A stretch of 64,000 nucleotides of DNA, taken from the NCBI GenBank assembly GCA_035289105.1, contig DATDYF010000037.1, positions 6,418-70,417 of the forward strand, given 5' to 3'. The notes beneath the pieces were generated by a model. That model was not told where the DNA came from. It ran no database searches and was given only the letters and a program-made list of their open reading frames with translations. The stretch is from Candidatus Nanoarchaeia archaeon. GTDB lineage: Archaea; Nanobdellota; Nanobdellia; Woesearchaeales; JACQSR01. Position 1 is the stretch's first letter; each line of letters starts with the position of its first letter. The position numbers and the translations under genes were made by a program. Positions 4,785-64,000 of the stretch are shown here, piece after piece.

Positions 4785-4827
4785 GGAGTATTATCTATTT
4801 TAGTGTATTTAAAGGTTAACTAAGAAA

Positions 4828-8768: not shown

Positions 8769-8983
8769 GAAATCGCCATATCCAAGGCTTAACAGCTTTC
8801 TATACTCGCGGACAAGATTAATTGAGCGATTGTTGTCCGCTCGTAATAAGCAAAGAGCATTGTTTATTGCTCAATTGTTTACACTCTTTGCTATAAGCAT
8901 GGTGAACCTGTCAAGGGTTTCCTCTCTGCTTAATTTAAATGTTTCGGTTGAGAGTGTTGAATTTCTTAGAAGGCGGTTCCGAC

Positions 8984-9035
8984 TCAGGAAGGATACCTCT
9001 TCACCAATTCCATCGCCTTTCTGCCGTTGGAATGG
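8984..9035 (-). pseudogene. Second diverged gatE 3'-end fragment (encodes ..NGRKAMELVKRYPS*)
   Basis: Shares 'cttcaccaattccatcgcc' with the 8521 fragment and 'ccatcgcctt' with the gatE 3' end at 10390-10399. Confidence 0.55.
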
Positions 9036-9097
9036 AAAGATTTATAAATTCTATGATTATTCTAATTAACACAGATTTAAATGTAGGTTAAACTGAA

Positions 9098-25161: not shown

Positions 25162-25437
25162 ATGGCACGAAAAAACGATTATGACTGGATAAAAATAGTT
25201 GCCTTGTTCATATCGGTTGTTGTGGTGCTAATCATAGCAATAAGCATACGGAATGGGCTAACATCGGATAATATACTTTCAGGGGCAATTACCTTTAAGG
25301 GGCCCAACCCCCATTTATATACTGGACCTAATCCTTTCGGGGAACCTGTTGATATGGAAGCAGCTGTTGCTAGTTATTGTGGCAAAGGTATCTTAGATGC
25401 GGCCCTTGAGGCAAATATTTGTGGAGTGCCACAATGA
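25162..25437 (+). CDS. Small membrane-anchored protein (91 aa). Overlaps the start of the giant gene.
   Basis: Starts 'MARK' within 'aaaatggcacgaaaaa'. The same start context 'aaaatggcacggaaaa' recurs at the giant gene. One TM helix. Confidence 0.42.
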   Translation: MARKNDYDWIKIVALFISVVVVLIIAISIRNGLTSDNILSGAITFKGPNPHLYTGPNPFGEPVDMEAAVASYCGKGILDAALEANICGVPQ

Positions 25438-37400: not shown

Positions 37401-38453
37401 CTGCACACAATAGACCAGGCAAAAACTAATTATTGCGGTGCAGGAAGGGGCAGCTGCAAGGAGCCGATACAAGGTGCTAGGGTAAAAGTCTTTGACAGGG
37501 ATAACGCTGACTTCCAGAGCGCGTTCACCAAGAATCCAAGCGGCACTTTATACGATGTGGTCTATGAGTCTGACATTGGCTTGATTGGCAGCTGCATTAC
37601 TGACAGCAGCGGCAGTTGCCTTGCAGTGGAGCAAGGTGCTGGCACTTACCTAGTTATAATCAAATATGTAGACGAGGAAACAAACTCAAATATATATGTA
37701 GGCAGGCCAAAGTCCCCATCTGACTTCGTTGATGTGAATGGCGACGGCAAAAGGGATATGGCAACAAAAGAAATACAAATAATTAAAGTCCTCGAAAAGG
37801 GCGGCAGGATTACCTTTAGGGGAGGAAGCAAAATCGTTGTTACAGGCTCAGAATTAGTGGTTATTTCAGCTGATAATGTGATTTGGATGAATGACAGGGA
37901 AGTTTATCCGTTCATATTCACTTCAGATGCTGACTGGACTGTGGATGTCTGCATGCAAATACCTGCGGGCTACCGAATAGAAGGTGTGCTGGATGAGAAT
38001 GGAAACGTAGTAACTACGGCAAATTGCGCGCAAACGTTTGTATCCGGCGAGGCTAAAGTAGTTATTTTCTCAGTAGTTGAAGTAGGCAGTCCGGAGCCTA
38101 ATTTCGGATTCACATTAACTACAAAGCATAATGGAAAAACTCAAACGGCAAAGGGGACAATAAATGGCATAAGGCAAAAAACGAAAACCCAATTGCAAAA
38201 GCAAATATCAACTAAAGTTAAGGCAGCTAAACAGGAAATAGCTAATCGCCAAGCAAAAAGCCAAACAAAAGAGACAGCTTCTCCACTAACCTCCAGAGCA
38301 GTAATCTCCAGGGCAGCAATGAGTTCAGCAACAGCATCAGAGCCTGTTGCGCCAAATGGAAATCTGACTTTCATATTCGCAATTTCTTCTATAGCCCTGC
38401 TTGTGTTATTGCTGGCAGTTATATATATCTACAAGGAAAGGGCAGCAAGATAA
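25419..38453 (+). CDS. Giant secreted cell-surface protein (4344 aa). Contains signal peptide, parallel beta-helix, three CGDGIDND Cys motifs, C-x9-C repeat array, TSP3-like Ca-binding repeats, MopE-like Cys-rich repeats, CarboxypepD_reg-like domain and a C-terminal TM anchor.
   Basis: Single uninterrupted 13035-nt ORF. N-terminal 'KIRILLLVSLITIISAFSASA'. PbH1-like 'ISNNTIYNV/ISNNSLTNV/ISGNSVT'. 'NCGDGIDNDNDGRIDCQDGDC' appears three times. 'DTDFDTLGDMCDNCDDFNPDQFDRDLDGIGDVCDNDRDGDG'. 'CDGLDNDCDAIVDE/CDSLDNDCDGQADE'. 'GARVKVFD..TDSSGSC..GTYLVI'. C-terminus '..LTFIFAISSIALLVLLLAVIYIYKERAAR'. Confidence 0.9.
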   Translation: MWSATMKMARKIRILLLVSLITIISAFSASAADCGNGIKDCECGDTVVADYTFSSDLVCDGSSGPVSGLVVGSDVQLSCAPDVKIECAPGVKDGGSCETGISISASNDISITGCTIIGWDRGVRIGSGSSNINITLNKILHNIQGILVTGAGNNITISYNTVSGNGVESSPGEGGVLGNCGDGIDNDADTQVDCADSECSFDVLCGGPGQGYFGGSIMVLTVHGQDNIQIIGNTINDTFVFENRGAIHIGGSNGNISNLVISNNTIYNVPLFPGISFSFVGIINLTISNNSLTNVGIGLGFGFAAPVENGIISGNSVTCSGLSATLGDIGMMVAGTADVTGNMVNDCDIGIFATFAGLAPGFVPSPISIDANTVTSNFGTGICTDIAFATLENNVISNGIIGIADLLEEFDPGNWQSGITILFNSYAAVQKEICRVRSPLVGGCLQFAEDALAGTVNLDALCGTGEPPFFCPIQFNFIVGGQLYDAPGGVVYVFKESEAQACGIDTSDGVQDYESGLPFGCQAITQTWTCNGIAGGTCSITLGDPGPAGYVAIAFDHPPGSQPPPSVAGAAVFGESLCGGQVDINEFGGETNCGDGIDNDNDGRIDCQDGDCQGSPSCPGCVVTMNWVDENQQPVNAPYGNILLLSYDEINNDCGIDLSQGVTTDIFQVFGNPCITQVQICGLFSGESLSDGQCVSQVNIAAGDQIVAVAIGSFGAEEIQSVQDSCENGLDDDGNNLVDCADPACAPARNCGPSNSLVGGGIFGPQACGGSATIGPLGGPEGCPLTFTAFGENNNPVPDGSYIFTLETAVISTIPYESPQGSGNFILIDPSDGIDFDEWFGLLIAAQNGPPPGLDGGCISPQGQPIPTSGGTCQGSLGELFPGNPNAPHTVVVLYDDFMNPTQIISQNYNFLTCGGQVIIGESGPEVGDCTITYSFVDGQSQPIDAPNGGVVIFSQNALQACVGTFPPPEPGEEDCNAIFNPSDGVMGGEIRCAFTCPGANVGTCPINLFQGTPGIPGGSCTSTILGSASPDYMIAIALDTFSGPPSLFGTATFTDAECGTEIIPGQVTIVAVGGPPPGALQVLVLEGSNPPVSPPGAIVLAFDATQLEAFLGTAVPYDLSPTQMQNLFADLDLGPGAGQSGFIGGCFGEQGPSPTGANGMCDLSLFFGDPTGPVVVLAFLNLDFQAPDPNFIKTRGVYIDGPPPSPITIIFPALNLFVESVTAASPMVSVTAGATDDTIAYLTLFDGSPFAGAIRIETRAVALRVNAPITEVFEVPDSPSTTGGSLHAFFAQVSPINDLFPQDNVKAEVRPSILASVTSSSSTKSNSVRDFSFTTSVDDYVPSAADSLVIIVPDFGKSKADYSAIAEKLAQSEKRVFVIDPVGYKGTTSTVTTSDPLFKGNNLRKWKEKDRLLPISAQLCALIPQLKAETGLASATIIGDGMGGAIVNTPELVCSAQANALVSTGAYCKPVTFSEGGPKSAVPYFNLKDGKTPCELPPSSVPSLVLQGDEEKPQGDLWFFKFKNKKPVTYGLIQGAQDSFITNSFAGTPEFDNAEIYIKSFIEKETGGAYTQLENDLNLRPELVHLLLEDVRANDDAVKPKDTLVSNDGFNLFAIESADLSSTPTGWAVGSVVDIEDVKDDFANFMTNALKISAGEATQKVFVKGSFENPDSGQLVLNYKVLAPSTNPVDSSAKLRLDFKDMQGNSLACIEFHSTNLPVSSTCSFAIAVSSGNDGRIQEISNIPVSEILKSVGAFTTKIFSVDIEISSDSPFYYDDVELLLEEDVLEVNEADFLDLTSHTATFTSPIININAGEQLTSILPLFVAEDGASITADVLDEFDIPIISGIELNSAANLMAFHETLKGLDSLKVRFNLDPGVTLYKYYVVAKPVDVFDTNINGVEVNSLLLDEQGSHSDYSVAFNLNNPGDFDLISAGETLSSDAISFGVGEIYNRVVKTDNSITRSDANNGITETDVSSSSGTVDSFITLFDSSVDTITQDINFGAGCHVEVDDVVMTSAFTTNKLIDIVCPNEEFTLTPFYGASNIELNEVKVDPVDATKDTVGDLDKLEVRDDSALTKTAGESVLEEGYDFSLLQDFLQNDIYQFLLDNGINDSLTQFFKNQLDKSADGVLKRDQVLETAFLGLLGGDNNFSTIMDTEVQFTATGIRLITRTQGNSILSRTIGISSSLNSDRFSIKGPGLAEGKCTSTRAIVLESSLITPKGLSVSDCVDIFVRGESKDLAQDVNSIDQLAKEAVSPRLDKEMVDTVLDSAKDNVTPRRGVISIGGSFDMRDSTISALDDLGFIGISVAGNSFVENSEVLDFQYFQSSAGCNFIGSVFESSAIDLLEEENRNAAENRNSEQLDFARQFHGVSCSSVDTGPANALDQSPSGNYKPSDVATSSVAEATLKIFEMDDPCVLSVAEGGSVCDKVLADLNARDVPITIRSFGEAADQLNLADIAFNQDLTNIKVSEIGKIPSSLSSITFKGIPLDQIMATDILDEINNNQKIDEVNAIRTNIENTGIDNNADELLTEGEEIAQPGLLDANLAPVSYSGLMVETPVEDLDVCLLSLPDGTGICDVRIDQDTIIEDLGITLCGLKRNGVSICNIITDDLNDNPTLDTVGYEAEYQVSKNGDVDVSELSLGDLAIGDRGDSVPFTALDTSINNVKFCDLQLEGVSVCNVVAGKTAVEQATDFTGLDAFDIIQKLENIPDIRESDYTGSFDYLMENLNFCANYAGYIDAELRKENNLDYLRVDKSFKFGNVAKLHIDGMCSVQLDQTSLCDLEGNDVYGPVIQNSAAISDSCNNAAGDFGSCVTNLKELNSCQLTIGGVSVCSVEVSKGLINDQTVYAGFNITKLQINGLCALAYKGISICDTSIDKVFNFTESQGTLEAATGEELISACDLTFNGINLCSGHQFDDEFCDQAKIDGVSVCNSRWDNRLVDDELITEAAQGQVFNDARDGGTFGDEQKQRLLRPSVCDLEINGTTLCDAVALVTFTNTVLPGESPADFVLDHTVLEFVSMDETKVNLLLIELGEKCNELFINVTDIINKTIPNIEHKGVPLSEMTLCDDVEINGLSLCDANLVLINDSDILDVVLNGDVVGQMDLRALLTNLVFALTYDVGGETFNDATGTIGDILDLREVRLGSSNLLDNVLLSSNSIRNSEVDVLTRLFMDYSIGTLSKPQRTLTFDNKKAIEVLDITLNSYDQFNLDCAIAKEIQSKVDLEGTEIDSPISKVELCDVFGIPTPLSNAQFGISSYSPPIGSLKEGSLTVNLNSVEFSDFTLETLYNLTEFDSETCDIHNNEFTDAAVSINCELSATGNNFFGKDLSDGGDLILGSPGALVVAVPDDDDKVEISGNRFNFNHMGGPGLVGAAEVDVSKNDFVDPLFNAQYITDSRNYLEQFIVKENLDTVDINDNVLVDRVESRISRDEAKELANTADKYNLVDDRYADLASDRSEIAELNRALSQLNDIDIESIQLTNEIADMFGIDISRVETLLNRELTPIDISNLDVDNTLNIERNYYRGFNSVRAYLPELIIPGNLNFATETSVFIYPKKRVSFVGNAIVDNPPIKIKSKEAIDISKVLLLNNFRAGCEIDDAAGMRNCADVELSTMAEPPEISGATAASLDRDEDTVPNHVDNCPFTPNTGQEDTDFDTLGDMCDNCDDFNPDQFDRDLDGIGDVCDNDRDGDGIANPADACPNAFDPGNSAEICSGCVDLDADTFYAFDADECTGGNDCDDSNAAANIFRLEACNNLDDNCNGQTDESVLQRCGASDVGECTFGVEACSAGSYIGCTAILPTAEVCDGLDNDCDAIVDEGIAPQQCEVTDAGECRFGLRSCEGGAFSSCVGNIDPVAEICDSLDNDCDGQADESAAGGDLTEVCGTDVGACQTGVRTCSAGGFGVCVGEIAPVGETSLACNNIDDNCNGVIDDGYDRDDDGFTSCDTPKPDCNDNDRSINPDAPERCNDGIDNNCDGKVDFGDTVNCPAADKVSVELHTIDQAKTNYCGAGRGSCKEPIQGARVKVFDRDNADFQSAFTKNPSGTLYDVVYESDIGLIGSCITDSSGSCLAVEQGAGTYLVIIKYVDEETNSNIYVGRPKSPSDFVDVNGDGKRDMATKEIQIIKVLEKGGRITFRGGSKIVVTGSELVVISADNVIWMNDREVYPFIFTSDADWTVDVCMQIPAGYRIEGVLDENGNVVTTANCAQTFVSGEAKVVIFSVVEVGSPEPNFGFTLTTKHNGKTQTAKGTINGIRQKTKTQLQKQISTKVKAAKQEIANRQAKSQTKETASPLTSRAVISRAAMSSATASEPVAPNGNLTFIFAISSIALLVLLLAVIYIYKERAAR
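33108..34670 (+). repeat. Array of about 11 degenerate C-x9-C repeats (consensus C-D-L-x-h-x-G-h-S-h-C-D/N) inside the giant protein
   Basis: VCLLSLPDGTGICD, LCGLKRNGVSICN, FCDLQLEGVSVCN, MCSVQLDQTSLCD, SCQLTIGGVSVCS, LCALAYKGISICD, ACDLTFNGINLCS, FCDQAKIDGVSVCN, VCDLEINGTTLCD, LCDDVEINGLSLCD. Confidence 0.6.
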
Positions 38454-38497: not shown

Positions 38498-38518
38498 CGC
38501 AGATTGAGACTCTTAGCA

Positions 38519-40897
38519 ATGCTGGAGAGATACGTCAGATTTGTTGAGAAGCATGCAAAATTATTGCTTTTCTTAGTCTTTCTTGTAACTTTGTTCTTCA
38601 TTTTCAGCCTTAAGGATTTGTCTTTTGACTCGGGTTCTGAAAGATTTGTGCCGCCTGACGTTCTGGAAAAACATAAGGAAATCATGGATGCATTCAACAT
38701 GAGCAGCAGGCCTTTCTATGTGTTGGTTACAGGAAAAAACATAAGTGTGCTCTCACTAGAAGCACTAAAAGAGGAATATACTCTTTCAAAAGCATTGGAA
38801 TCCGAATTTGGCATTAAAATAATTAACATTGCCTACTTATTCGACTTTCTTTTAAGGCAGGAAAAAAACGAGACCCTGCTCCAGCAGGAAAGCTGGGTAA
38901 ATGTGAGCCAGACTTTTAAGAGCGCTTTGGACGAAGTCAGAAGCATCAAGCCCTTAAAGCAGCAATTCAAGGAATTCTCATATCAGCTTTTGTCAAACGA
39001 CCTGGATAAAAGGGAGCTATTTTCTCCTGCAATTCTAAGAAGAACCCTCTCTGCAAACAAAACATTGTTCATTGTGTTGCCTGAAGAAGTTTATGATGAG
39101 AAAGAGATGCTGCAATTGAGCCTGAATATGCGGGATTTTCTCTCTGGCAAAAGCTTTGATTATATTGATGCAAAGGCATTCTCAGATCTGTACCTTATTT
39201 ACGAATCAGACTCGTATATGCGGAACGAAGCCTTTTACCTCGGAATCTTAATGTTTCTGATAATCGCTTTTATTTTGTTTCTCTACCTCAGGCGTATTTC
39301 TTATGTCATGATTCCGTTGATTATCATAGGGGTCTCTCTGGTTTGGACTTTTGGCACTGCAGCCTTTTTAGGAATAGAGCTTACGTTTCTTGGGACTCTT
39401 ATCGCCCCTGTATTAATTGGAGCCGGAGTGGATTACTCTGTGCACTTTATTAGAAGGTATACCGAAGAAAGGAAAACAAAGGAAAGCACTCAGGCATTTA
39501 GCATTACTCTGGCGCACACCGGAAAAGCCACATTCATGACCGCCGTTATAACAGCTATTTCTTTTGGGTCAAACTTTTTCTCCACACTTCCTCCGCTGAA
39601 AGATTTTGGCATAATTACCGCTGTTGGAATTCTATATGCGTTTATTTTAACCATAGTTCTTCAGCAAGCGCTAATGAGCCTTGTCGAAAGGCCAAAAGAG
39701 CTTGTGTTTGCAGCAAGGGAAAATCCGTGGTCAAAGAATATTCTAAAATTTACCTTGGAGCATTATAAGGGAATATTGCTTGTTACTGTTTTAATTAGCC
39801 TTGTCAGCGGATATTATGCCCTGCAGATAAACAGCTATTTTGACTTTGAAGCTTCGATATCGCAGGAAATTGAATCAAGGAAAACAATCAAGGATATTCG
39901 GGATAATTTTCCCTTCGAATTGCAGATTGGGGCGCTGGTGAGAAATGCAGACGACCCTTTTCTCTTTGAGAAAATTTACAGTTTTGAAGAAGAAATGAAA
40001 AAAAGCCCTTATGTAATCCAAATAGATGGCAGCATAAAAACAGACAACATAAGGAGGGCACTGAAGATGGTATTTGGCTATAACGAAAGCCTTGCTGAAA
40101 AATTCGAATTTAACCTGGAAGGAATCCCCACAACTGTAAATCGGACTCTCGTCCTGGATTTATATCAAGATATTTATTCCAGCAATACAGCAATTAACCC
40201 CCTTTTCAACCTAAGCACCTCTAATTTAATCCATACAGTCCTGCAAAGAACAGATTCCGATAATTACAGCACAGTTATTGTAGCGAAAATGGTGATTCCA
40301 AATACGGAGGCCTTAGAAAAGGGGGTGAGTAATTTTACAAATTCCCTGGATATAGCAAAAATACAGGTGGAGGATTTTTTTGGCTGGGCTTATTATGCAT
40401 TTACAATTGATGAAAACATTGCTGAAAGCAACCAAAAATCAGTGTTTTTCTCAATCCTGACCATATTCGTGGTTCTTCTGCCAGTTTACAGAAAAGTTAG
40501 AGAAATAGTGTACCTTATGCTGCCAATCTTGATTACCATACTCTGGACCATAGGGGCATTGTCAATCCTGGGCATTGCCTTAAACCCTGCAAATGCGATG
40601 GTGGCAGTAATGATAATTGGGTTGGGCTTGGATTATAACATCCACATAGTTGAAAGATACAAAGAAGAAAGGCAGAAATTTTCAAAACTGGAAGCGTTGG
40701 AAAACACGTTAAGCCAATCCGGCTCGGCAATATTTTTTTCTGCCTTGACAACGGTTGCCGCATTTGCAGTAATAGCCATCTCCAGAATCCCAATAACAAG
40801 GGAGTTCGGCCTAATACTCCTGATAGCAATAACCGCTGGCTTTTTGTTCAGCTCCATAATCACGCCTATTTTGCTGTATAGGTGGGATCTGGAATAG
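38519..40897 (+). CDS. RND-superfamily / MMPL-type exporter with two 6-TM bundles and sterol-sensing-like domain
   Basis: Duplicated 'GAGVDYSVHFIRRYTEER' and 'GLGLDYNIHIVERYKEER' motifs following TM bundles. Large periplasmic-type loops. About 790 aa. Confidence 0.82.
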   Translation: MLERYVRFVEKHAKLLLFLVFLVTLFFIFSLKDLSFDSGSERFVPPDVLEKHKEIMDAFNMSSRPFYVLVTGKNISVLSLEALKEEYTLSKALESEFGIKIINIAYLFDFLLRQEKNETLLQQESWVNVSQTFKSALDEVRSIKPLKQQFKEFSYQLLSNDLDKRELFSPAILRRTLSANKTLFIVLPEEVYDEKEMLQLSLNMRDFLSGKSFDYIDAKAFSDLYLIYESDSYMRNEAFYLGILMFLIIAFILFLYLRRISYVMIPLIIIGVSLVWTFGTAAFLGIELTFLGTLIAPVLIGAGVDYSVHFIRRYTEERKTKESTQAFSITLAHTGKATFMTAVITAISFGSNFFSTLPPLKDFGIITAVGILYAFILTIVLQQALMSLVERPKELVFAARENPWSKNILKFTLEHYKGILLVTVLISLVSGYYALQINSYFDFEASISQEIESRKTIKDIRDNFPFELQIGALVRNADDPFLFEKIYSFEEEMKKSPYVIQIDGSIKTDNIRRALKMVFGYNESLAEKFEFNLEGIPTTVNRTLVLDLYQDIYSSNTAINPLFNLSTSNLIHTVLQRTDSDNYSTVIVAKMVIPNTEALEKGVSNFTNSLDIAKIQVEDFFGWAYYAFTIDENIAESNQKSVFFSILTIFVVLLPVYRKVREIVYLMLPILITILWTIGALSILGIALNPANAMVAVMIIGLGLDYNIHIVERYKEERQKFSKLEALENTLSQSGSAIFFSALTTVAAFAVIAISRIPITREFGLILLIAITAGFLFSSIITPILLYRWDLE

Positions 40898-55099: not shown

Positions 55100-56185
55100 A
55101 TGAAAATGGAAGATCCAATAATAAAAAGGATAAAAGAAGAAGGGAGAAGTAAAAGGGCAAAAGCACCAGAGCAAAGAACTTTGACTGGAAGCATAGACCA
55201 GATTTTTTTGCCGGCAAGGGAAAATTCAGGCCAGTTGCAGAAGTTATACATGATTGGCAATCCGATCCATACGCTGAACCCCGATCAAACACCTTACGGA
55301 AGGCCCGGGCTGAAGGAGCTTGAGATTGCTGTGGAGAGGGTGAATGAGGGGCAAAAACAGCTGGAGGTCATAAAAAAGATAGAACGCTCTGAACTCTACA
55401 AGGGCATGATAACACTTTCTGACGGCCTCTTGGGGTTATTTGGAAGAAGGCCTGATAGGTTTAATGACATCTATGGGCTGTTTGAGCACCAGCAGCATAA
55501 TGTCAGGGACTTAAATCACATACTGGCAGCCATGGGGCGCTCTTACGATGAGAATGTAAAGAATACAAGGGCAGACCTAGACGGCCTTTTGGTTAAGACT
55601 CAAAGGGAGATAGAAAGAAGAAAAGTTATGGAGCAGGATGAAATTCCTCCAGAGATTAGAAGATATGACAATGCCATTTCAGCCCTTAAGGACAAAGACA
55701 GGTACAAAGACCCCTCAAGTTATTTTAGCGCTTTGCAAGAGGTTATTGATGCAAAAAGGGTGAGCAGGCAGAAAAGGTTTGAGTTCATCACCACCTCGAT
55801 GGGTGAAGAGCATCATTCTCTGCAGATAGACAAATTAATGATGCAGGAGGAGCTGTTTGAGACGATGCTTTACAGGGTTATGGAAATGGCGTTCAAGACC
55901 GAGCTTTATCAGGAAACCCTTGACCGCGACATTCCGCTCTGGAGATCTACGAGAGACCTCTTCGAGGCGGTTAAGGCAGTAAGCGGCTCCATGCTAATCC
56001 TTGAGAGCTACAACAGGGACCTTAACGAGACATACCTGAGGGCAATATCTGAGATTACAAGAATGGTTGATGGCCACAGAGGCGCAAGGCTCATAGAAAG
56101 CGCAAACCAAGACATGAGAAGGATGATAACTGATGTGAATGCAAGCTTTTACAGGAATGCTTCGCAATATGAGCAGAGAAAGTGA
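55100..56185 (+). CDS. Hypothetical protein
   Basis: 361-aa charged helical protein with no recognised family. Confidence 0.5.
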   Translation: MKMEDPIIKRIKEEGRSKRAKAPEQRTLTGSIDQIFLPARENSGQLQKLYMIGNPIHTLNPDQTPYGRPGLKELEIAVERVNEGQKQLEVIKKIERSELYKGMITLSDGLLGLFGRRPDRFNDIYGLFEHQQHNVRDLNHILAAMGRSYDENVKNTRADLDGLLVKTQREIERRKVMEQDEIPPEIRRYDNAISALKDKDRYKDPSSYFSALQEVIDAKRVSRQKRFEFITTSMGEEHHSLQIDKLMMQEELFETMLYRVMEMAFKTELYQETLDRDIPLWRSTRDLFEAVKAVSGSMLILESYNRDLNETYLRAISEITRMVDGHRGARLIESANQDMRRMITDVNASFYRNASQYEQRK

Positions 56186-56910
56186 TTGACTTAATTGTTC
56201 AAAAGCTAAAGTCCAGAGGGGCGTCAAGAAACCATAATCTTAACAGCCTTATATTGCAATCGCTGAAGGCCCAGAGAAGTCCAAGGCCGGAGTTTGACGT
56301 CAGCAGGTCAATAATTTATTCATTAAAACAGCAATTTAGGCCGCCATACAATTATCCGGCTTTTCCTGCGGAAACCGCATCTCTCGCCCAAGAACTTCAG
56401 CAGGATGCAATCAGGGAGCCCTTGCTCGATGTCAGCCAGATTGTTCCCAGCTATAACGTAATTGTGAATGACGAAAGTTTGCAGAATCCATTCATCATAA
56501 GCTCCTCGCTTGTTGAAATAATCAGGGAACACACTAACAACTATCAGTCCCAAGAGGATAAAGCTAAAGCGATATATGATTGGATGGAAGACAACATCGA
56601 GTATGGAAGGGACGGAAGATACGGATACAAGAACTCCAAAGAGACATTGGAAACGAAGGAAGGAATTTGCGGTGAAATGGCATTCCTCTACATTACGATG
56701 GCAAGGTGCTGCTCGCTCAGAAGCTCGTTTGTGGATGTGGAGGTGGATTTTAAGGGAAAAAGGGTTGAACACGGCTGTGCTATTGTGGATGCAGGCTACA
56801 GAGACGTCCTTGCCGACCCTGCATACCATCAATTTGACATTCAGCATAGGAGGTTCAGGGTGCTAAGCGACAGGGAAGTTCTCGAGATGTTCAATGAGTG
56901 GAGGGGGTAA
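56182..56910 (+). CDS. Transglutaminase-like cysteine protease superfamily protein
   Basis: Cys 'GICGEMAFLY', His 'HGCAIV', Asp 'DPAY' triad spacing typical of the TGase-like core. 4-nt overlap with the upstream gene. Confidence 0.65.
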   Translation: MIDLIVQKLKSRGASRNHNLNSLILQSLKAQRSPRPEFDVSRSIIYSLKQQFRPPYNYPAFPAETASLAQELQQDAIREPLLDVSQIVPSYNVIVNDESLQNPFIISSSLVEIIREHTNNYQSQEDKAKAIYDWMEDNIEYGRDGRYGYKNSKETLETKEGICGEMAFLYITMARCCSLRSSFVDVEVDFKGKRVEHGCAIVDAGYRDVLADPAYHQFDIQHRRFRVLSDREVLEMFNEWRG

Positions 56911-56930: not shown

Positions 56931-57971
56931 TTAGCCTTTAGACGATTCAATAAACCCATCAATAAGCCCAAACAGCTTTGAGTTGTCTTCCCTCTTAAAC
57001 TTTCTCAAATTTTTTCTGTAGCTCTCCAGGTTTTGCAAAAACGCAGCTAAATCCCCCATTCCAATCTTTTCCCCCGATATGCCGTAACCCAGCTTCTCGA
57101 CATAATAGCCATTGATTATCTGCTCAAACTGGTTTCCGATAACATTGCAGAATATCGGCTTCCCAAGGTAAATTGCCTCGCTTATCAATGTAAACCCGCC
57201 GTTTGTGATTACCGCCTTGCAGCTTGCAAAATCCCTGTAAAAATTCTTTTCATCAATCTGCTTGAATCTAATGTTCCCCTCTGTTGGACGTTCGCCAAGC
57301 CCGTAAACAACAAACTTTTCATCAATGCCTTTCAGCGCAGGCAGGAGTTCAATATTGCTCTGAGAAGTCTGGTAAACAAGCACGTGGCTTCCATATTTGG
57401 TCCTTAGGGCCCTTATATCATCGCGAAGTATCGGTGGCACGAAAAAAAGGTTTTTTGTTGTTATTTTGTTGAAGAAAAAGGTTGTTGCAATGTATATATC
57501 CACCCTTGGGGCAAAAAATTTAACCGCTCTCTTGGTAAAATTGAAAAACCACTTATGCCGCTTTTCTACTTCAATATTTGTGCCTATTAATGCATGCTGG
57601 TTGTCAATGCTTATTGTGGGAATTCTAAATATATTCGCCCAGTAGGTTATGCTCCCCTCAAAATCCGAAATTGCAATATCCGGCCTGTCCTTTATCATGT
57701 AATATGCAATCTTTGAGTTGTATAAGCTCATAAATGGAGTATGCAAAAAACCTAAAAGGAGGGAAAGAAAATGATTTGCCCTGTTGCGCAGGTAAATAAA
57801 ATGGTAATACTGAAGATGATGCAAATCGTATTTTCCTTTAAAAAACTTATAGGCCTTTCCTCCTGCAAAAACCCTGACATCGTGCTTCTTCGACAGATGC
57901 TCCAAAATAGGCTTGCTCCTGATTGCATGCCCCATCCCCTCTCCGTTAATCCCGTAAAAAATCTTTGCCAT
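56931..57971 (-). CDS. Glycosyltransferase (GT1/GT28, MGT/UDP-glucuronosyltransferase-like)
   Basis: N-terminal 'GINGEGMGHAIRSKPI'. C-terminal nucleotide-sugar binding region 'ITNGGFTLISEAI'. 346 aa. Confidence 0.78.
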   Translation of the reverse strand: MAKIFYGINGEGMGHAIRSKPILEHLSKKHDVRVFAGGKAYKFFKGKYDLHHLQYYHFIYLRNRANHFLSLLLGFLHTPFMSLYNSKIAYYMIKDRPDIAISDFEGSITYWANIFRIPTISIDNQHALIGTNIEVEKRHKWFFNFTKRAVKFFAPRVDIYIATTFFFNKITTKNLFFVPPILRDDIRALRTKYGSHVLVYQTSQSNIELLPALKGIDEKFVVYGLGERPTEGNIRFKQIDEKNFYRDFASCKAVITNGGFTLISEAIYLGKPIFCNVIGNQFEQIINGYYVEKLGYGISGEKIGMGDLAAFLQNLESYRKNLRKFKREDNSKLFGLIDGFIESSKG

Positions 57972-58694: not shown

Positions 58695-58852
58695 TGCACC
58701 GGCTGGGACTTTCGACATATGAGCGATTTGGGGGATACGAGCGAAGCGAAGTATCCTCCGATTCTCTTTGCTCATTTCTCGGATACGAGAAATGTTTCGA
58801 ACCCAGGCCAAAAGCTTGGAAGGCTTCTATCCTACCGCTAGACTACCGGTGC
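58695..58852 (-). tRNA. tRNA-Gly(UCC) with an 87-nt non-canonical intron in the T-loop (59/60)
   Basis: Minus-strand read is GCACCGG-TA-GTCT-AGCGGTA-GGAT-A-GAAGC-CTTCCAA-GCTTT-TGGC-CTGGG-TTCGAA-[intron 58709-58795]-T-CCCAG-CCGGTGC-A. Acceptor and T stems are perfect. U33 and A37 are present. Anticodon is UCC. Confidence 0.65.
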
Positions 58853-59110: not shown

Positions 59111-60133
59111 CTACATTAAAAAACTCCTCAAATTCCCCAAAAACCTCCCAAAATCCTCTGCCTTGACATTGGCTCCGCATGCATTCTCATGCCCTCCCCC
59201 ATAGCCCTCTATTCCAACAAGCGATTTCTGGAGAGCATTAAGTATCGGCTTGCTGCTTCTCAGGCTCATTCTTATTTCGCCGCTCTTCTCCCTTCCGACG
59301 ATAACAATTTTTTTGGGATATCTGTACAGCAACTCATTCGACAATTCGCTGGTAAAGCTCCATTTGTCCGCCTGATAGGTAAAGACAATAAATTTGTCCT
59401 TTCCAGCCTTCTTTTTCGCTTCCTGAAGCAGATCTTCATATTTCTTTTCAATATCTTCATATCTATTCTTTAAGAACTTAGACTGTGCGGTATTCGCCTC
59501 CAAAATCTCCTCAGGCCCGGAAATCCTTGAAAGCACTTTCACAGAGACCATGACATCTTTTGTTGGCCCCTTCAGAAGAAAAGAAAATATCCTTGCTATC
59601 CTCCCAATTTTAGTGTCGAACAATGCCTTTCCCGGACTAATCTTTCCAATTTTGAAATCTGGATATTCTTTGTTAAATTCCACAATAAAGTTAGGTATAT
59701 GCCAGTCCCCTACTGTTCCTACAGCCCCAATCCACGCATCCTGCTTTACTGCATTATAGCAAATGCTTGATGTCGGGTCATTCGAAGCAGGGCTTTTAAT
59801 CATGGGATTGATGCATGTTACCCTATTCAGCTCAATAGGCTGATGATGGTCAATCCATACAATTGGGACATTTACCCTCTCAACAAACTCCTCAAGCACA
59901 ACTGCAACATCCAGAACAAACACCTTGTCAGGCCCGTATTCCTCCACTCTCTCGGCAAATTTCGCATCAAGCCTCGGCACAGTCTTGACTACAATTCCCC
60001 TTCCCTCTTTTTTATATCTGTAAAGCAACAGGAAAGAGCACAGCCCGTCAGGATCATCGTCAAAGAAAAATAAGGGCTTTGAGCATTCATCAAGCTCTTT
60101 TCTTATTCTCTCATAATCCTTCTCTGTCAGCAT
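59111..60133 (-). CDS. DHH-family phosphoesterase (NrnA/RecJ-like)
   Basis: 'FFFDDDPDGLCS' (DHH motif I-II region). 'WIDHHQP' motif. 340 aa. Confidence 0.78.
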   Translation of the reverse strand: MLTEKDYERIRKELDECSKPLFFFDDDPDGLCSFLLLYRYKKEGRGIVVKTVPRLDAKFAERVEEYGPDKVFVLDVAVVLEEFVERVNVPIVWIDHHQPIELNRVTCINPMIKSPASNDPTSSICYNAVKQDAWIGAVGTVGDWHIPNFIVEFNKEYPDFKIGKISPGKALFDTKIGRIARIFSFLLKGPTKDVMVSVKVLSRISGPEEILEANTAQSKFLKNRYEDIEKKYEDLLQEAKKKAGKDKFIVFTYQADKWSFTSELSNELLYRYPKKIVIVGREKSGEIRMSLRSSKPILNALQKSLVGIEGYGGGHENACGANVKAEDFGRFLGNLRSFLM

Positions 60134-60134
60134 T

Positions 60135-60392
60135 TTAGATTTCGTCTTTTCCTGTCTGGAGGTTCTTTATGTGGATGGCATTCACTGGGCATGATTTGGC
60201 AGCCTCAAGGTTCTTCTCAAAGTCCTTTTCCTCAATAACTATTGTCTGGATTTTATTGCCATTCTCCCTTGCCCCGCCTATGATGTCCACTTTGCTGTCA
60301 TCCACAAGCTTCCAGAAGTCCTCGGCGCAAGCAACACAGCTTGCAGCCCCAATGCAGGTTTCCCTGCCAAGGGTAATTTTGTATTTTGCCAT
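60135..60392 (-). CDS. fdx: Ferredoxin (single 4Fe-4S cluster type)
   Basis: 'CIGAASCVACAED' ... 'CPVNAI'. 85 aa. Start abuts the stop of the upstream DHH gene. Confidence 0.72.
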   Translation of the reverse strand: MAKYKITLGRETCIGAASCVACAEDFWKLVDDSKVDIIGGARENGNKIQTIVIEEKDFEKNLEAAKSCPVNAIHIKNLQTGKDEI

Positions 60393-60517
60393 TAAACCCC
60401 CAAAAGAAACGCCCCTTTTTAAATATTCTTCTCCCTTTTAAAACCCTTTTAAGGCAATTTGTAACCACCTTTAAATAGTGAAAAAACGAAAGGTTTAAAT
60501 ACCCTAATTACCTTATT

Positions 60518-61699
60518 TTGCCTATGGCCAAGAGGGCAAAGGATAAGGGGGGTTTGGAAGGATTAGTAGCTGGAATAGACAGGGCTAAGCGGGCTTTTGA
60601 GCCAGGTCTCGATAAATTCCTTCTCTGGGGAACGGCTAACGCAGGCGTTGTTTATGGCGCTGCTGAACTTATCGACAGATCCGACCTTTCGGATTCCACC
60701 AACGCTCTTATCATGATGGGCACGGGATTCTTGATTGGAGCAGGTAATTATATTGCGCTCAAATCCAAAAGGACATCACTATTAAGAAAGGTTTTAGGCA
60801 GGGCCAACTCCGCTCTGGATAAAATCAGGCCTTTGTCTTGGATAAAGACTGGAGTTTTTGCCGCTTTATTGTATCATTGTGGTTCTCATTTGGGCCCCTA
60901 CGTTAGTGAGGTTGCTGAAGACATCAATTCAAGAATAAATAGGCAGGCGCATGTTGAGATGGTCAGCAGGTTGCCAACAAGTCAGCCTGGAAAAGGAAGG
61001 CCAGATGTGTACAACAACTTAGATTACAATTCTCTTATCGAGTATGATTTTAGCAGAGTAAAGCTTGCCGATAAGAATTCAACCATCGGGAGAATTCAGA
61101 GAACTTTGAGATGGTTGCCAATATCTAGAGCCGTCGAACAAAAATATGGGATCCCTAAAGATGTGTTGGCTGGCATGATAATGCAAGAGAGCTATGGCGA
61201 CCCTGTCCAGCCTAATGCGGGCAACGACGGAGGCCTAGGTGTCGTTCATATACAGGGAAATGTCGCGAAGATATACGGACTGGATATTCATGGAGATTCA
61301 CACAAGCCAAACGACCCAAGCCACGGCAAGCAGCTAAAAAAAATGTTGGAGCAATGCCGTTACGATCCTAGCCGCATCCAGAAATATGATGAAAGGGGGC
61401 ATTTGATAAAAGTGCTGGATGCAGCCGCACGCATAGTTGCAGAGGGAGCATCAAAACACGGCAACTGGACCTATGGCGTTGAATACTATCGCGGTCCCGG
61501 TCATGTTGGAAAAAATACTGGCTGGAGATATTATCATGCAGTTGAAAAATGGAGGAAAGCCATAAACAACCCAAAAAGCTTGGGCATGGCTGTTGCAGAT
61601 TTCGAGAAGAGAAATGGATATGCTTTGGACGATTATGTGGCTAAATGGAATGCCATGAACAATAATTGGGGGCTAGCAACCTATAAAGGTTCAGGTTAA
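60518..61699 (+). CDS. Lytic transglycosylase (SLT/lysozyme-like) domain protein
   Basis: SLT-like 'AGMIMQESYGDPVQPNAGNDGGLGVVHIQ'. N-terminal hydrophobic segment. 393 aa. Confidence 0.58.
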   Translation: MPMAKRAKDKGGLEGLVAGIDRAKRAFEPGLDKFLLWGTANAGVVYGAAELIDRSDLSDSTNALIMMGTGFLIGAGNYIALKSKRTSLLRKVLGRANSALDKIRPLSWIKTGVFAALLYHCGSHLGPYVSEVAEDINSRINRQAHVEMVSRLPTSQPGKGRPDVYNNLDYNSLIEYDFSRVKLADKNSTIGRIQRTLRWLPISRAVEQKYGIPKDVLAGMIMQESYGDPVQPNAGNDGGLGVVHIQGNVAKIYGLDIHGDSHKPNDPSHGKQLKKMLEQCRYDPSRIQKYDERGHLIKVLDAAARIVAEGASKHGNWTYGVEYYRGPGHVGKNTGWRYYHAVEKWRKAINNPKSLGMAVADFEKRNGYALDDYVAKWNAMNNNWGLATYKGSG

Positions 61700-61700
61700 T

Positions 61701-63554
61701 ATGAACAGCACAATAAGCCAAGGATTGGGAGAGCCTATTCATAGAATGCCTTTTCCTAGCCAAAGCTATATTGCAGGCCAACCACGCAGAATGTACTTAG
61801 GCACTGCAGGGTTGGGCAGCAAAGAGTCTGGCAATCAAAGTTTGGAAAGAATTGCCCTAGTAGCAGCTGCTTCGCTTTTGCCGCCTGCTGCATTTGCGCA
61901 GGAAGTAGCTGTTGTTGAGAATATCCCTGACGATCATGCCTCGATAAGTGGACAGGAAAGCCTTATCGAAAGAATGATAGAAAAAGCAGAGATAAGCGTG
62001 GCAGAAAAAAACCTTCTCGTAAATCTCCGCGAGCCATACATGTCCGTAATGAAGAGGGTCCATAATACCTCGGACGCTATGGAGGTATTGGCAGTCATGA
62101 TGGCCGATTCTAACATAAATTTTGCAACTGAAGAGCGAAAAGACTTCATAGCAATGTTAAGGGGCTATTACAAGGAAAAAGGCGAGAAACTTCTTGATAC
62201 ATACCACCAATTCAAGAAAGATTTGAATTTTTCACCGCTTCAGACTTTCATAGCAGCAGATACAGAAATCCACGGCCACAATGAAAACACCCTTTCGAGG
62301 TCAAAAAATTTCGACTCCACCCTTATTCAATTAGGAAAAATAGAATCCAAGTTTGAAATGCTCTATCGTGGAATCTCAGAGCCGAAGATGACCATTACAC
62401 AGGAAGAGGAAAGCGTCGCCACAGTTAAACCCAGTTATTTCTATATTCAGGTTGCAGCGTATGACGAAAATAAGGCGGAAGATGGGCTTAAACTCCTTCA
62501 TAAGGGAGTTTACAATGGCACCCTTAAATCAAAAAGCCAGATTTACAAGAATGGAGACAATAAGGTTGTTTCCCTAATTGGGCCTTTCATAAAAACAGAC
62601 GAAAAAACAGAAGATAGTGACCTTGCAAAGGCGGTTGAAGAAATATTCAAGTCTGACGAAAAACTGGGCATTGAAACTCTCTGGGTTGTTGAATTCTCCC
62701 CGGATGGAGACCCCCAAAAAAAACACTGGAGATTAAGGTTTGACAGGAAAGATTACCAAGAATCCGAAAATGATGTCTCCGAAAAGCCCGAAACTAAAAA
62801 TCCTGTAGTGTATAAAGACGCTTTAACATGGCAGGAACTTGAAAAACGCGCTATGCAGGAAAAAGCTCAAGACGGAAGGACTATTTTGGACGTAGTTATC
62901 GAAAAATCAAACAAGCACGAGATTGACCCTCTTTTAGTATTATCTTTAATTCAGGTGGAATCAGGATTCAACTATAATGCCACGGGGTACAAATTAAGGA
63001 AAGTTGGCGCTTCAAAATCAGGAAAGCCAATTTTTGCTTATGTTGTTGATGAAAAAGGGGATAGGATTAAGACAGCAATGGGTTACATGCAGATAACACC
63101 CGATACGCTTTATGAGACTTTAGGCATAAAATATGACGGTAGCCTCAAGGCAGAAAAAAAGGTCCGCTCAATTGAGACAAATATCGAAGCAGGGATAATG
63201 TCTTTAAGGTCTATGTACAATAAAATACCGGTAATTGCAGGCGTTACTTCGAAGGGTCTGCTTTTGCATAACGAGCATGGAAATCATTCACCTGACGATA
63301 TTGAAAAAATAGCAATTGCCGCCTACAACTGCGGTGCAGGAAATACAAAAAGAAGAACAGGCGTCTATGGCGCCATCTACAGGGCGCATGCTGAAACAGG
63401 AATAAACCCGAAATTAGGAAAAACATTAAAGGTAAAAACAGATGATATTCTTAACAATTTGCCTCCAGAATCAAAGAGGCACGTGGATAAGGTATTTGCA
63501 CAATACGAACTTCTAAAGGAAACCGCACCTAATAAATACCTCACATCCCGTTAA
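61701..63554 (+). CDS. Lytic transglycosylase (SLT) domain protein
   Basis: 'LSLIQVESGFN' and 'MGYMQITPDTL' and 'AAYNCGAGN' are the three SLT motifs. Starts 2 nt after the upstream gene. 617 aa. Confidence 0.68.
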   Translation: MNSTISQGLGEPIHRMPFPSQSYIAGQPRRMYLGTAGLGSKESGNQSLERIALVAAASLLPPAAFAQEVAVVENIPDDHASISGQESLIERMIEKAEISVAEKNLLVNLREPYMSVMKRVHNTSDAMEVLAVMMADSNINFATEERKDFIAMLRGYYKEKGEKLLDTYHQFKKDLNFSPLQTFIAADTEIHGHNENTLSRSKNFDSTLIQLGKIESKFEMLYRGISEPKMTITQEEESVATVKPSYFYIQVAAYDENKAEDGLKLLHKGVYNGTLKSKSQIYKNGDNKVVSLIGPFIKTDEKTEDSDLAKAVEEIFKSDEKLGIETLWVVEFSPDGDPQKKHWRLRFDRKDYQESENDVSEKPETKNPVVYKDALTWQELEKRAMQEKAQDGRTILDVVIEKSNKHEIDPLLVLSLIQVESGFNYNATGYKLRKVGASKSGKPIFAYVVDEKGDRIKTAMGYMQITPDTLYETLGIKYDGSLKAEKKVRSIETNIEAGIMSLRSMYNKIPVIAGVTSKGLLLHNEHGNHSPDDIEKIAIAAYNCGAGNTKRRTGVYGAIYRAHAETGINPKLGKTLKVKTDDILNNLPPESKRHVDKVFAQYELLKETAPNKYLTSR

Positions 63555-63590
63555 CAACATTTTAATACCCGGAATCTTTACCTTCATTAA

Positions 63591-64000
63591 TGCCCGCCTG
63601 CCTTATCTGCAAGTCTGAAGTTCCTCATTATCTTGAAGACAGGAGGCTTTGCCAAAAGCACGCAAAGCAGGAGAATGTGCTGAATCTGAAAAATCAATTA
63701 TCCGACAAGGATTTCCATTCATCCTCGGGCTCTGTGTTTGTGGGGAGATTCAACTATCCGAACATCAATGTCGGCATCCTTGCGCCTCCAGTCCTTTCAG
63801 AAAACAACTGGCTTCACGATGCTCCGGATTACTGGTCTTCCCGTAATTTTACTATCTCGAGCATTGTTGACTTGCGCTCATCCCTATTAAATAACCGCTT
63901 TCAGTCAAATGTCCTTGATGCAAGAAAATCATCTAAACTACTCTCCCTCTCCCAGGAAATTTCCATGGTGGAAAAGCCTGCAGAAATTGAAGTCAGCTTG
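63591..64000 (+). CDS. Hypothetical protein with N-terminal zinc-ribbon (CxxC..C..H). 3' end beyond the window.
   Basis: ATG at 63591. Frame stays open to the window end. 'MPACLICKSEVPHYLEDRRLCQKH'. Missing from the ORF track because it has no stop. Confidence 0.45.

Follow-up and report, generated by a model that had tools for sequence, protein, structure and literature searches.

Two unrelated GH23-type proteins, predicted to be membrane-anchored and exported respectively, encoded side by side in a Woesearchaeota-type archaeal genome

The locus described here lies in a stretch of 64,000 nucleotides of DNA (hereafter the window) which carries the NCBI source label 'Candidatus Nanoarchaeia archaeon'. 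An earlier, sequence-only reading placed a pair of lytic-transglycosylase (SLT) genes in an archaeal genome, and that placement is borne out by the label and by genes of the window encoding GatD/GatE, a family-B polymerase (PolB), Cdc48 and Nre. The host is a tiny, probably symbiotic DPANN archaeon of the Woesearchaeota type. GC content at the gene pair is unremarkable, Rfam and tRNA scans gave no match relevant to the locus, and no further SLT paralogues are present within the window. The giant 4344-residue protein of the window was rejected as a counterpart of the published 'large SLT protein', having no SLT domain. Fermentative enzymes are also encoded, namely PPDK, lactate/malate dehydrogenase and 2-hydroxyacid dehydrogenase. 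The features of the locus and its flanks are as follows.

59111-60133, minus strand: DHH/DHHA1 (RecJ-like) gene; divergent upstream flank, context outside the unit
60135-60392, minus strand: small 4Fe-4S ferredoxin gene; divergent upstream flank, context outside the unit
60494-60501, plus strand: TATA-box-like element TTTAAATA, read from sequence, 23 nt 5' of ATG 60524
60524-61699, plus strand: ORF-A, 391 aa, ATG as in the NCBI call; 'hypothetical protein VJI46_04220'
60617-60904, plus strand: predicted N-terminal anchor of ORF-A, three Gly/Ala-rich hydrophobic helices
61070-61696, plus strand: lysozyme-like (GH23) catalytic domain of ORF-A
61701-63554, plus strand: ORF-B, 617 aa; NCBI HLC65302.1, 'transglycosylase SLT domain-containing protein'
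61842-61898, plus strand: predicted hydrophobic export segment of ORF-B (hydropathy), LERIALVAAASLLPPAAFA followed by QE (AxA-type cleavage motif)
62436-62735, plus strand: SPOR-like module of ORF-B, aa 246-345, from a leave-one-out HMM (profile of its relatives)
62892-63524, plus strand: SLT catalytic domain of ORF-B, aa 398-608
63590-64000, plus strand: start of nre (archaeal Nre family; Pfam Nre_N, E=1.6e-17), which runs out of the window

ORF-A and ORF-B, both on the plus strand, are separated by a single nucleotide (TAA-T-ATG), not by the two reported earlier, and so small a gap makes co-transcription plausible, as well as the coupled translation that had been suggested. An alternative TTG start at 60518 would lengthen ORF-A to 393 residues, but ATG 60524 is likelier. 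The TATA-box-like TTTAAATA, of which a second copy lies at 60470-60477, is a putative archaeal promoter for a leaderless ORF-A/ORF-B transcript. The ferredoxin and DHH/DHHA1 genes, which the pair had been said to follow, are divergent, on the opposite strand, and therefore outside the operon; they have no functional link to ORF-A/ORF-B. Tandem or recent paralogy of the two genes was rejected, since BLASTP shows no similarity between their products. A conserved pairing is likewise unsupported: at none of the 21 other ORF-A loci is there a B-like or SPOR neighbour, and the two are seen together in this genome only.

Both proteins have a lysozyme-like α-helical fold with the catalytic Glu in an E-S motif, in agreement with the SLT identity first proposed for them, and fold comparison gives murein lytic transglycosylases as the best structural matches of each. 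Profile searching with Pfam SLT (PF01464; gathering score 21.3 bits), the check suggested by the sequence-only reading, separates them: ORF-B is significant (51.1 bits, E=1.2e-13), ORF-A falls below cut-off (12.7 bits, E=0.098). The set of SLT motifs attributed to both proteins is similarly complete in ORF-B alone. There, Glu420 (codon 62958-62960) and Ser421 are invariant in seven sequences, motifs II and III are the canonical GYMQI and AAYNCG, and a β-hairpin insertion of roughly 25 residues, common to its relatives, lies between E-S and GYMQ. Outside this SLT core the predicted structure is poor, with a mean pLDDT of 55. In ORF-A the E-S is present, but motif II reads GLGVVHIQ in place of GLMQ and motif III EYYRGPG in place of AYNxG, and of the canonical residues just Gln, Tyr and one Gly remain; all three are invariant in the family.

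Since the profile match of ORF-A is not significant, its identification needs the structure model together with the evidence of its family. The E-S (61187-61192) lies in the context MIMQ-E-S-YGDPVQPNAGNDGGLGVVHIQ and aligns with the E-S of EmtA; the Glu codon (61187-61189) specifies E222 in the 391-residue numbering or E224 in the 393-residue numbering. All 41 homologues keep E-S and D237-G-G; 13 of them match Pfam SLT at E<=0.01 (best 6e-6) and eight carry a C-terminal LysM. A family profile finds EmtA and goose lysozyme among PDB sequences at marginal significance (E about 0.08-0.13), and it was on account of such marginal matches that fold comparison was required. Taken with the model, these observations suggest that ORF-A is a divergent, membrane-anchored GH23/SLT-fold protein and a putative glycan-cleaving enzyme.

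The proposed anchor comprises helices at residues 32-50, 59-81 and 107-127, placed by hydropathy in a region where the AF2 model is helical. Net charge in the family (K+R/D+E, 41 homologues) is +3.3 for the N-terminus, -1.7 for loop 1, +4.7 for loop 2 and -1.2 after the third helix, a pattern from which the N-terminus appears to lie inside and the C-terminus, with the catalytic domain, outside. The best 19-residue Kyte-Doolittle window scores 1.57, the helices being just moderately hydrophobic, so that membrane insertion is not certain. Found across many Woese-/Pacearchaeota in a housekeeping-like chromosomal context, the family is mostly annotated 'hypothetical'; three-helix-anchored and distinct, it is a previously unannotated membrane-anchored GH23 family and, as such, a small addition made here.

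ORF-B is predicted to be exported, although in the annotated protein the hydrophobic segment does not begin until residue 50, an unusual position for a signal peptide. Initiation at an alternative TTG, 61842, would yield a classical signal peptide; a twin-arginine motif, QPRRMYLG (residues 27-34), lies upstream of the hydrophobic segment and apart from it. N-terminal signal or anchor segments are present in all six relatives. On hydropathy and charge statistics both proteins of the locus have N-terminal membrane or export features, and the lack of any secretion signal, which the sequence-only reading had named as evidence against itself, is not what is observed.

A helical spacer of about 180 residues separates this N-terminal signal from the SPOR-like module, whose topology in a low-confidence model is β-α-β-β-α-β(-β) over residues 246-348 and whose Gln250, in the sequence Y-I-Q-V, is invariant. 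Residues 234-360 of ORF-B give no match to Pfam SPOR (PF05036) at E<=1, a profile passed by four of the six relatives (P0064, P0067, P0068 and P0069). Against a leave-one-out HMM of the module in the relatives, however, the module scores 25.2 bits, compared with 9.1 for the best of 5000 shuffles, and the family profile of the module matches solved SPOR domains (CwlC, E=2e-7; DedD, 1e-4; DamX and FtsN). These figures point to homology with the SPOR domains of the relatives. Bacterial SPOR modules bind peptide-stripped glycan strands, as at division septa, and the module of ORF-B may similarly bind denuded murein glycan. ORF-B is thus best described as a predicted exported SPOR-like plus SLT lytic transglycosylase.

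Relatives of ORF-B are few. An exhaustive HMMER search of 1.84 billion representatives produced six weak matches, word-indexed searches with ORF-B, alone or as a seven-sequence profile, returned essentially ORF-B itself only, and phmmer against PDB sequences gave no match. The best of the six (E=1.4e-12, residues 236-607) is MBN2052948.1 (P0064) of Woesearchaeales SM23-78 (GCA_016932315.1), which is listed as a 'SPOR+SLT' archaeal peptidoglycan hydrolase, with export scored 'Tat', in S2 Table of 'Archaea produce peptidoglycan hydrolases that kill bacteria' (PLoS Biol 2025, PMC12352652). It shares with ORF-B the order signal, SPOR, SLT, the insertion between E-S and GLMQ, and a position directly upstream of nre with DHH upstream. 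The identity is just 28-31%, and ORF-B differs further in being longer by 128 residues, in its long helical N-terminal region and in the gap between its twin-arginine motif and its hydrophobic segment. In that survey a modular hydrolase has at least one Pfam catalytic domain and at least one Pfam cell-wall-binding domain. ORF-B has its SLT domain only above threshold and ORF-A neither domain, so that the two, though resembling archaeal modular peptidoglycan hydrolases in sequence features, escape the formal definition; with its SPOR module below the Pfam threshold, ORF-B would have been missed as such. Domain-threshold surveys therefore undercount enzymes of this kind, because the ORF-A family is mostly 'hypothetical' and the SPOR module of ORF-B sub-threshold.

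Sequence identity to the family-1 lytic transglycosylases of E. coli and Pseudomonas (MltC, MltE/EmtA, MltF, MltD and Slt70) is 10-24%; those enzymes, whether lipoproteins or periplasmic, work on the sacculus of their own cell, whereas the present host is without murein. ORF-A departs from them in having GLGVVHIQ for GLMQ, EYYRxPG for AYNxG and an invariant D-G-G after E-S. Nearer to ORF-A are membrane-anchored SLT-like proteins of Prolixibacteraceae/Sunxiuqinia (Bacteroidota; loci L016 and L017), which are 42-44% identical to it over about 145 residues of the catalytic domain and have the MQESYGNP…NDGG motif in common with it. Their layout is also the same, with three N-terminal TM segments, clearly hydrophobic and in the same place as the ORF-A helices, a basic loop and a C-terminal catalytic domain. 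Their N-terminal regions, however, show no detectable sequence similarity to that of ORF-A, they retain canonical GLMMFQ and AYNRG, and they lack a C-terminal helical extension of roughly 60 residues found in the archaeal family. As in ORF-B, a SPOR module accompanies a glycan-cleaving or cell-wall domain in RlpA, FtsN, DamX, DedD and CwlC, but these act at the septum of their own bacterial cell. RlpA is a SPOR-domain lytic transglycosylase with a catalytic domain of DPBB fold, not SLT.

The nre gene is the conserved downstream flank of the slot that the pair occupies. At loci L002, L007, L022 and L023 of other genomes the slot between DHH and nre holds ORF-A-type or SPOR-SLT-type genes, DHH again lying upstream of it in L002 and L022. 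Hydrolase cassettes have been swapped there between closely related genomes with near-identical flanks, a second small addition made here. From L002 it seemed that ORF-B had recently been inserted between an ORF-A gene and nre, but in L022 and L023 SPOR-SLT orthologues immediately precede nre, and the idea was rejected. The upstream neighbour of MBN2052948.1 in L022, a gene for an unrelated 488-residue protein, was also rejected as an ORF-A homologue.

We consider it reasonably probable that the two genes encode unrelated, extracytoplasmic, family-1 lytic-transglycosylase-like enzymes of the GH23 type, which work on the outside of the archaeon and cleave the glycan backbone of bacterial peptidoglycan. 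Gene structure, fold, catalytic motifs, conservation in the families, synteny and the archaeal host are shown; membrane topology and export, glycan binding of the SPOR type, the peptidoglycan substrate, the cleavage chemistry and the ecological role are inferred. A GH23 fold with intact Glu, export features and SPOR or LysM modules together make foreign peptidoglycan the most economical reading of the substrate. ORF-A and ORF-B would probably be co-produced from the one putative TATA-like promoter. Three helices at its N-terminus would tether ORF-A to the archaeal membrane, catalytic domain outward, and, so held, it could attack only a wall that the archaeon touches; ORF-B would be exported via its N-terminal signal and its SLT domain would use Glu420 as acid/base. 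Lytic-transglycosylase rather than lysozyme chemistry is expected of both. Together they might open or erode the bacterial sacculus at the contact site, and the gain could be attachment, host access, killing or a harvest of muropeptides.

Action on foreign peptidoglycan, the suggestion with which this work began, is accordingly plausible, but it is also already in print. Discussion of GH23 murein-like lytic transglycosylases in Woese-/Pacearchaeota goes back to 2013-2015 (Rinke 2013; Castelle 2015; both cited in Castelle 2021, PMC8204110), SLT/GH23 proteins of the two groups are also treated by Vigneron 2022 (PMC9723730), and the reading of their owners as episymbionts or predators of bacteria is published. 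The published cases resemble the present one in that SLT/GH23 proteins of murein-less DPANN are predicted to act extracellularly on bacterial walls; those papers stress huge proteins (up to ~3000 aa), whereas ours have 391 and 617 residues. The general picture is unchanged. Murein-degrading enzymes in organisms without murein are nonetheless among the few sequence clues to DPANN archaea living or preying on bacteria rather than archaea, and the locus provides two candidates of compact size whose catalytic residues are clear targets for mutation, together with a putative SPOR-type module for targeting and a possibly membrane-tethered variant that would imply action on contact.

The same enzymes and substrate might instead serve scavenging, free peptidoglycan debris (necromass) being digested as a source of amino sugars and peptides, independently of any specific host. 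DPANN genomes have been described as recyclers of cellular compounds, a secreted SPOR-SLT protein could act on shed or denuded glycan fragments, and the fermentative enzymes of the window would fit. We think this unlikely, however, as a membrane-tethered ORF-A better suits contact-dependent action than a dispersed polymer, no MurNAc/GlcNAc uptake or catabolic genes were seen adjoining the pair, and cassette swaps between near-identical flanks look more like arms-race dynamics. Somewhat more doubtful still is a substrate other than murein, such as chitin or another GlcNAc-rich glycan (chito-oligosaccharides, or a glycan on the surface of the cell itself or of a host archaeon), the pair then being GH23 chitinase- or lysozyme-like hydrolases. 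Against this stand the murein lytic transglycosylases that best match both structures, the combination of canonical SLT motifs and a SPOR-type module in ORF-B (SPOR being known solely as a murein-glycan binder) and the fact that outside the Archaea ORF-A has its nearest relatives among membrane proteins of Bacteroidota, which bear peptidoglycan.

Conservation of the ORF-A family in many Woese-/Pacearchaeota, in its housekeeping-like context, and a membrane-anchored architecture like that of bacterial relatives, where such enzymes act on their own wall, would also suit an autolysin remodelling a murein- or pseudomurein-like wall polymer of the archaeon. We regard this as very improbable. Mur-ligase, MraY and PBP-type genes are absent within the 64-kb window, and the patchy distribution, with slot content swapped between close relatives, is unlike that of an essential autolysin. 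The pseudomurein-like substrate once envisaged finds no support: GH23, SPOR and LysM are murein or GlcNAc-glycan modules, and the β-1,3 linkages of pseudomurein are not known to be substrates of GH23 enzymes. In two papers on pseudomurein biosynthesis no link to DPANN appears, and just two of the archaeal peptidoglycan-hydrolase homologues in a large published survey come from pseudomurein-synthesizing classes.

A tblastn search of 50,697 phage records gave no match, and PHROG 669 gives a generic match to the SLT region of ORF-B (E=1.4e-6) and none to ORF-A; a phage endolysin origin found no support, given the lack of a match among the phage records and the cellular archaeal genes at the flanks. 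SLT domains belong mostly to bacteria and phages, and this, the weak PHROG match and the near absence of relatives of ORF-B might suggest passengers that no longer have a function (acquired recently from a bacterium or virus, left over from an endolysin or mis-binned from a bacterium), but we give the idea scarcely any credence given archaeal genes on both sides on one contig, an archaeal-type TATA box, unremarkable GC, no phage match, positional orthologues in other Woesearchaeota and catalytic residues invariant in 41 ORF-A homologues and seven ORF-B-type proteins.

A bolder proposal, which we offer as speculation and think rather unlikely to hold, is that the interval from the DHH/RecJ-like gene to nre is, in Woesearchaeales, a dedicated, exchangeable 'wall-breaching' slot, here filled by a contact-dependent A/B pair used in docking on a bacterial host, with host range turning over by cassette exchange. 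Were this so, the membrane-tethered ORF-A would cleave the wall where it meets the archaeon and the SPOR-guided ORF-B would home to peptide-free glycan, for example at division septa, which would set how and where a DPANN archaeon docks on a bacterium and provide a mechanism of cross-domain episymbiosis. Exchange of cassettes at one fixed slot is the pattern expected for host-interface proteins.

The cassettes seen in the slot are three-TM-anchored GH23 proteins with or without LysM, SPOR+SLT proteins and the 488-residue protein of unknown kind.

The locus does hold two SLT-type genes, as the sequence-only reading had claimed, and small corrections to its layout sufficed. ORF-A and ORF-B, the two adjacent genes in question, lie among the following features.

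59111-60133, minus strand, DHH/DHHA1 gene
60135-60392, minus strand, ferredoxin gene
60494-60501, plus strand, TTTAAATA box, 23 nt upstream of ATG 60524
60518..61699, plus strand, ORF-A, 393 aa if started at TTG
61701..63554, plus strand, ORF-B, 617 aa
63590 onwards, plus strand, nre, starting 35 nt past ORF-B (Pfam Nre_N, E=1.6e-17)

The most likely start of ORF-A is the ATG at 60524, giving 391 aa; the identical NCBI protein HLC65301.1 ('hypothetical protein VJI46_04220 [Candidatus Nanoarchaeia archaeon]') begins there. The TTTAAATA box is a candidate archaeal promoter, its spacing being that expected for a leaderless transcript. The ORF-A stop codon TAA occupies 61697-61699 and the ORF-B ATG lies at 61701, so that the intergenic gap is 1 nt, not the 2 nt first given. 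Adjacency to the ferredoxin/DHH pair holds, but these genes, being on the minus strand, are divergent neighbours of ORF-A and not operon partners.

GC around the pair is unremarkable, and the ORF-B protein matches HLC65302.1 exactly, an entry from the MAG of a 'Candidatus Nanoarchaeia archaeon'. Archaeal genes in the window include those for GatD and GatE-type amidotransferase subunits, family-B DNA polymerase, Cdc48 and Nre, and their presence on both sides of the SLT genes argues that the pair is not a mis-binned bacterial fragment. A few kb upstream lie a transglutaminase-core protein (56182-56910, plus strand) and a PF13528 (Glyco_trans_1_3) glycosyltransferase (56931-57971, minus strand); the former type also occurs near the ORF-A homologue at another locus, L003 (7898-9643), which may be coincidence. 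The sole tRNA of the 64-kb window is tRNA-Gly(TCC) (58781-58852, minus strand), and an Rfam scan of the whole window yielded no family at threshold.

Profile comparison bore out the SLT assignment for ORF-B (Pfam SLT at aa 398-552, E=1.2e-13, 51.1 bits, cut-off 21.3 bits), where the motifs E420-S421, G-Y-M-Q-I and A-A-Y-N-C-G are found, but not for ORF-A alone, whose match was not significant (E=0.098). Homologues of ORF-A number 62, with identities of 31-57%. The majority have no source name; those with one come from Pace-/Woesearchaeota or unclassified-archaeon MAGs. Alignment of 41 of them reveals a nearly invariant core, MIMQ-E-S-YGDPVQPN..DGGLG..H.QG, and of these 13 match Pfam SLT and eight carry a C-terminal LysM domain. 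In the family profile the invariant E-S aligns with that of EmtA/MltE, and a family-based AlphaFold model of ORF-A is confident (pLDDT 88). An invariant Asp follows the catalytic Glu by 13 residues, a spacing that we take to recall goose lysozyme. Three hydrophobic helices rich in Gly and Ala make up the N-terminal 130 residues, and the net charges of the flanking segments in the 41 sequences (+3.3, -1.7, +4.7, -1.2) fit the positive-inside rule with a predicted N-in/C-out topology. BLASTP detects no sequence similarity between ORF-A and ORF-B, which are therefore regarded as independent GH23 lineages.

A scan of GTDB species genomes for ORF-A relatives gave 17 loci, mostly in DPANN MAGs, with two in Bacteroidota (Sunxiuqinia and Prolixibacteraceae) and one weak match in Anaerolineaceae. 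Contigs of four loci with ORF-A homologues (L007, L009, L012 and L013) are labelled 'uncultured Methanosarcinales archaeon', a label treated as unreliable since these homologues are 37-50% identical to ORF-A and the Nre of L007 is 78% identical to that of the Woesearchaeota locus L022. The ORF-A catalytic domain is 42-44% identical to the two Bacteroidota proteins, both of which have three unambiguous TM segments and a highly basic loop arranged as in ORF-A. Identity and layout together support the prediction that the family comprises membrane-anchored, outward-facing enzymes with a bacterial connection. In the Prolixibacteraceae locus (L017) an 866-aa ABC-ATPase/FtsX-like permease fusion (1904-4504, plus strand) directly precedes the ORF-A cousin (4518-5555, plus strand), an order that calls to mind how FtsEX-type systems control wall hydrolases. 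In two other genomes a gene of about 254 aa directly precedes the ORF-A homologue (L001, 5186-5950, plus strand; the JGI contig of relative P0010, 4195-4956). In the L001 protein a signal-peptide-like N-terminus is combined with a HEIGGH zinc-peptidase-like motif (weak Peptidase_Mx1 match, E=0.01), while its counterpart gives a faint SleB-type Hydrolase_2 match; both may be companion wall-degrading enzymes.

In ORF-B a single stretch is strongly hydrophobic (aa 50-66; IALVAAASLLPPAAFA, then QE), and it looks like the h-region of a signal peptide with an AxA site behind it. It is preceded, at a distance of 20 residues, by a twin-arginine motif, QPRRMYLG, and an alternative start at TTG 61842 would yield a textbook signal peptide. 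Searched exhaustively with HMMER, 1.84 billion representatives yielded just six weak relatives, two being named Woesearchaeota/Nanoarchaeota SLT proteins. All six have N-terminal signal or anchor segments and four pass Pfam SPOR, N-terminal to the SLT domain. Pfam SPOR gives no match on the corresponding module of ORF-B itself (aa 246-345). With an HMM made from the modules of the relatives, in a leave-one-out test, the ORF-B module scores 25.2 bits, compared with 9.1 for the best of 5000 shuffles; the family profile matches solved SPOR domains (CwlC, E=2e-7; DedD, 1e-4; DamX; FtsN); the strand-1 Gln is invariant; and the topology is predicted, in a low-confidence model, as beta-alpha-beta-beta-alpha-beta(-beta). 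On these grounds ORF-B is treated as signal – helical spacer – divergent SPOR – SLT. Bacterial SPOR modules recognise peptide-free glycan strands at septa, as Yahashiri et al. 2015 and Alcorlo et al. 2019 reportedly describe.

The best-supported reading is that ORF-A and ORF-B would be two extracytoplasmic glycan-strand-cleaving enzymes, probably co-expressed, ORF-A predicted to be tethered to the archaeal membrane and ORF-B to be exported and targeted by its SPOR-type module. The sequences would fit lytic transglycosylation or hydrolysis alike. Bacterial murein is the predicted substrate of both, judging from the LysM and SPOR modules found alongside the catalytic domains and from the relatives in bacteria. 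The initial interpretation as a whole is upheld in part. Necromass scavenging would be a rival role for such enzymes. Chitin or another GlcNAc glycan might instead be the substrate, as GH23 also holds chitinases and g-type lysozymes, both of them among the structural matches. The archaeon's own wall is a further rival reading; the pseudomurein-like glycan originally suggested gained no support, the pseudomurein literature consulted offering none for its presence in DPANN. As to the pair being a non-functional passenger, a search of phage genomes found no match, and PHROG gave just a generic SLT-region match, for ORF-B.

Comparison with other genomes places the pair in a recurring position upstream of nre.

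Gene orders upstream of nre; (-) marks minus-strand genes.
Window: DHH(-) – ferredoxin(-) – ORF-A – ORF-B – Nre
L022 (Woesearchaeales SM23-78, GCA_016932315.1): DHH(-) – ThiF(-) – 488-aa protein (3538-5004, plus strand) – SPOR-SLT (P0064, 4-nt overlap with the preceding gene) – Nre
L023: SPOR-SLT (P0069) – Nre
L002: DHH(-) – ThiF(-) – ORF-A homologue with LysM – Nre
L007: ORF-A homologue – Nre

The place before nre is thus a conserved slot of this clade, filled by either hydrolase type or by both; in it ORF-B is the positional orthologue of P0064 and P0069. L002 and L022 come from close Woesearchaeal relatives: their flanks are 78-82% identical in DNA (protein identity 83% for DHH, 89% for Nre), whereas between the flanks (L002 5971-7545, L022 3551-6520) there is no detectable similarity: between ThiF and nre, 1.6 kb of ORF-A-LysM in the one stands against 3.0 kb of 488-aa protein plus SPOR-SLT in the other. 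One cassette cleanly replaces the other, with gene boundaries as the limits. Divergence of the SPOR-SLT orthologues outpaces that of the adjoining genes: L022 and L023 share 50% identity in Nre and 23% in SPOR-SLT, and the window and L022 share 42% in DHH and 36% in Nre but 28% in ORF-B. Outside the window's clade the ORF-A family occupies varied genomic contexts, and none of 21 other ORF-A loci has an ORF-B-like or SPOR gene. The 488-aa protein holds the position of ORF-A in L022; Pfam gives no match for it, inspection by eye shows no obvious hydrophobic segment, and comparison ruled it out as an ORF-A homologue. About 2 kb downstream of the slot L022 carries a reverse-transcriptase (RVT_1) gene (8807-9928, minus strand), absent from the matching position of L002.

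SLT/GH23 proteins of Woese-/Pacearchaeota, with inferred binding to or attack on bacterial walls, have been described before (Rinke 2013 and Castelle 2015, as cited in Castelle 2021, PMC8204110; Vigneron 2022, PMC9723730; an oxygen-deficient-zone DPANN study, PMC10936187). According to a 2025 survey (PMC12352652), about 5% of archaeal genomes encode modular peptidoglycan hydrolases, those of Nanoarchaeota most prominently; its title reports killing of bacteria, and its detailed follow-up centres on halobacterial zoocin-A homologues. Its S2 table lists many Woesearchaeales LysM+SLT proteins and gives the ORF-B orthologue MBN2052948.1 (P0064) as 'SPOR+SLT, Tat'. ORF-A and ORF-B would escape the definition used in that survey because their domains are sub-threshold, and are cryptic relatives of already known archaeal peptidoglycan hydrolases. 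The foreign-murein interpretation is thus already in the literature, to which we add only modest points: a divergent SPOR module in ORF-B, whose homology we infer; the placing of ORF-A in a conserved GH23 family that has a predicted three-helix anchor and cousins among the Bacteroidota; and the cassette-swapping hydrolase slot upstream of nre.

Elsewhere in the window a giant ORF of 4344 aa (25419-38453, plus strand), with GC of up to 0.49 within it, combines N-terminal right-handed beta-helix/NosD-like repeats with thrombospondin type-3 and MopE-like metal-binding motifs in its C-terminal part. The ORF, which lacks an SLT domain, probably codes for one of those huge surface or adhesion proteins that have been noted in DPANN genomes, and is directly followed by an MMPL/RND-type transporter gene (38504-40897, plus strand).
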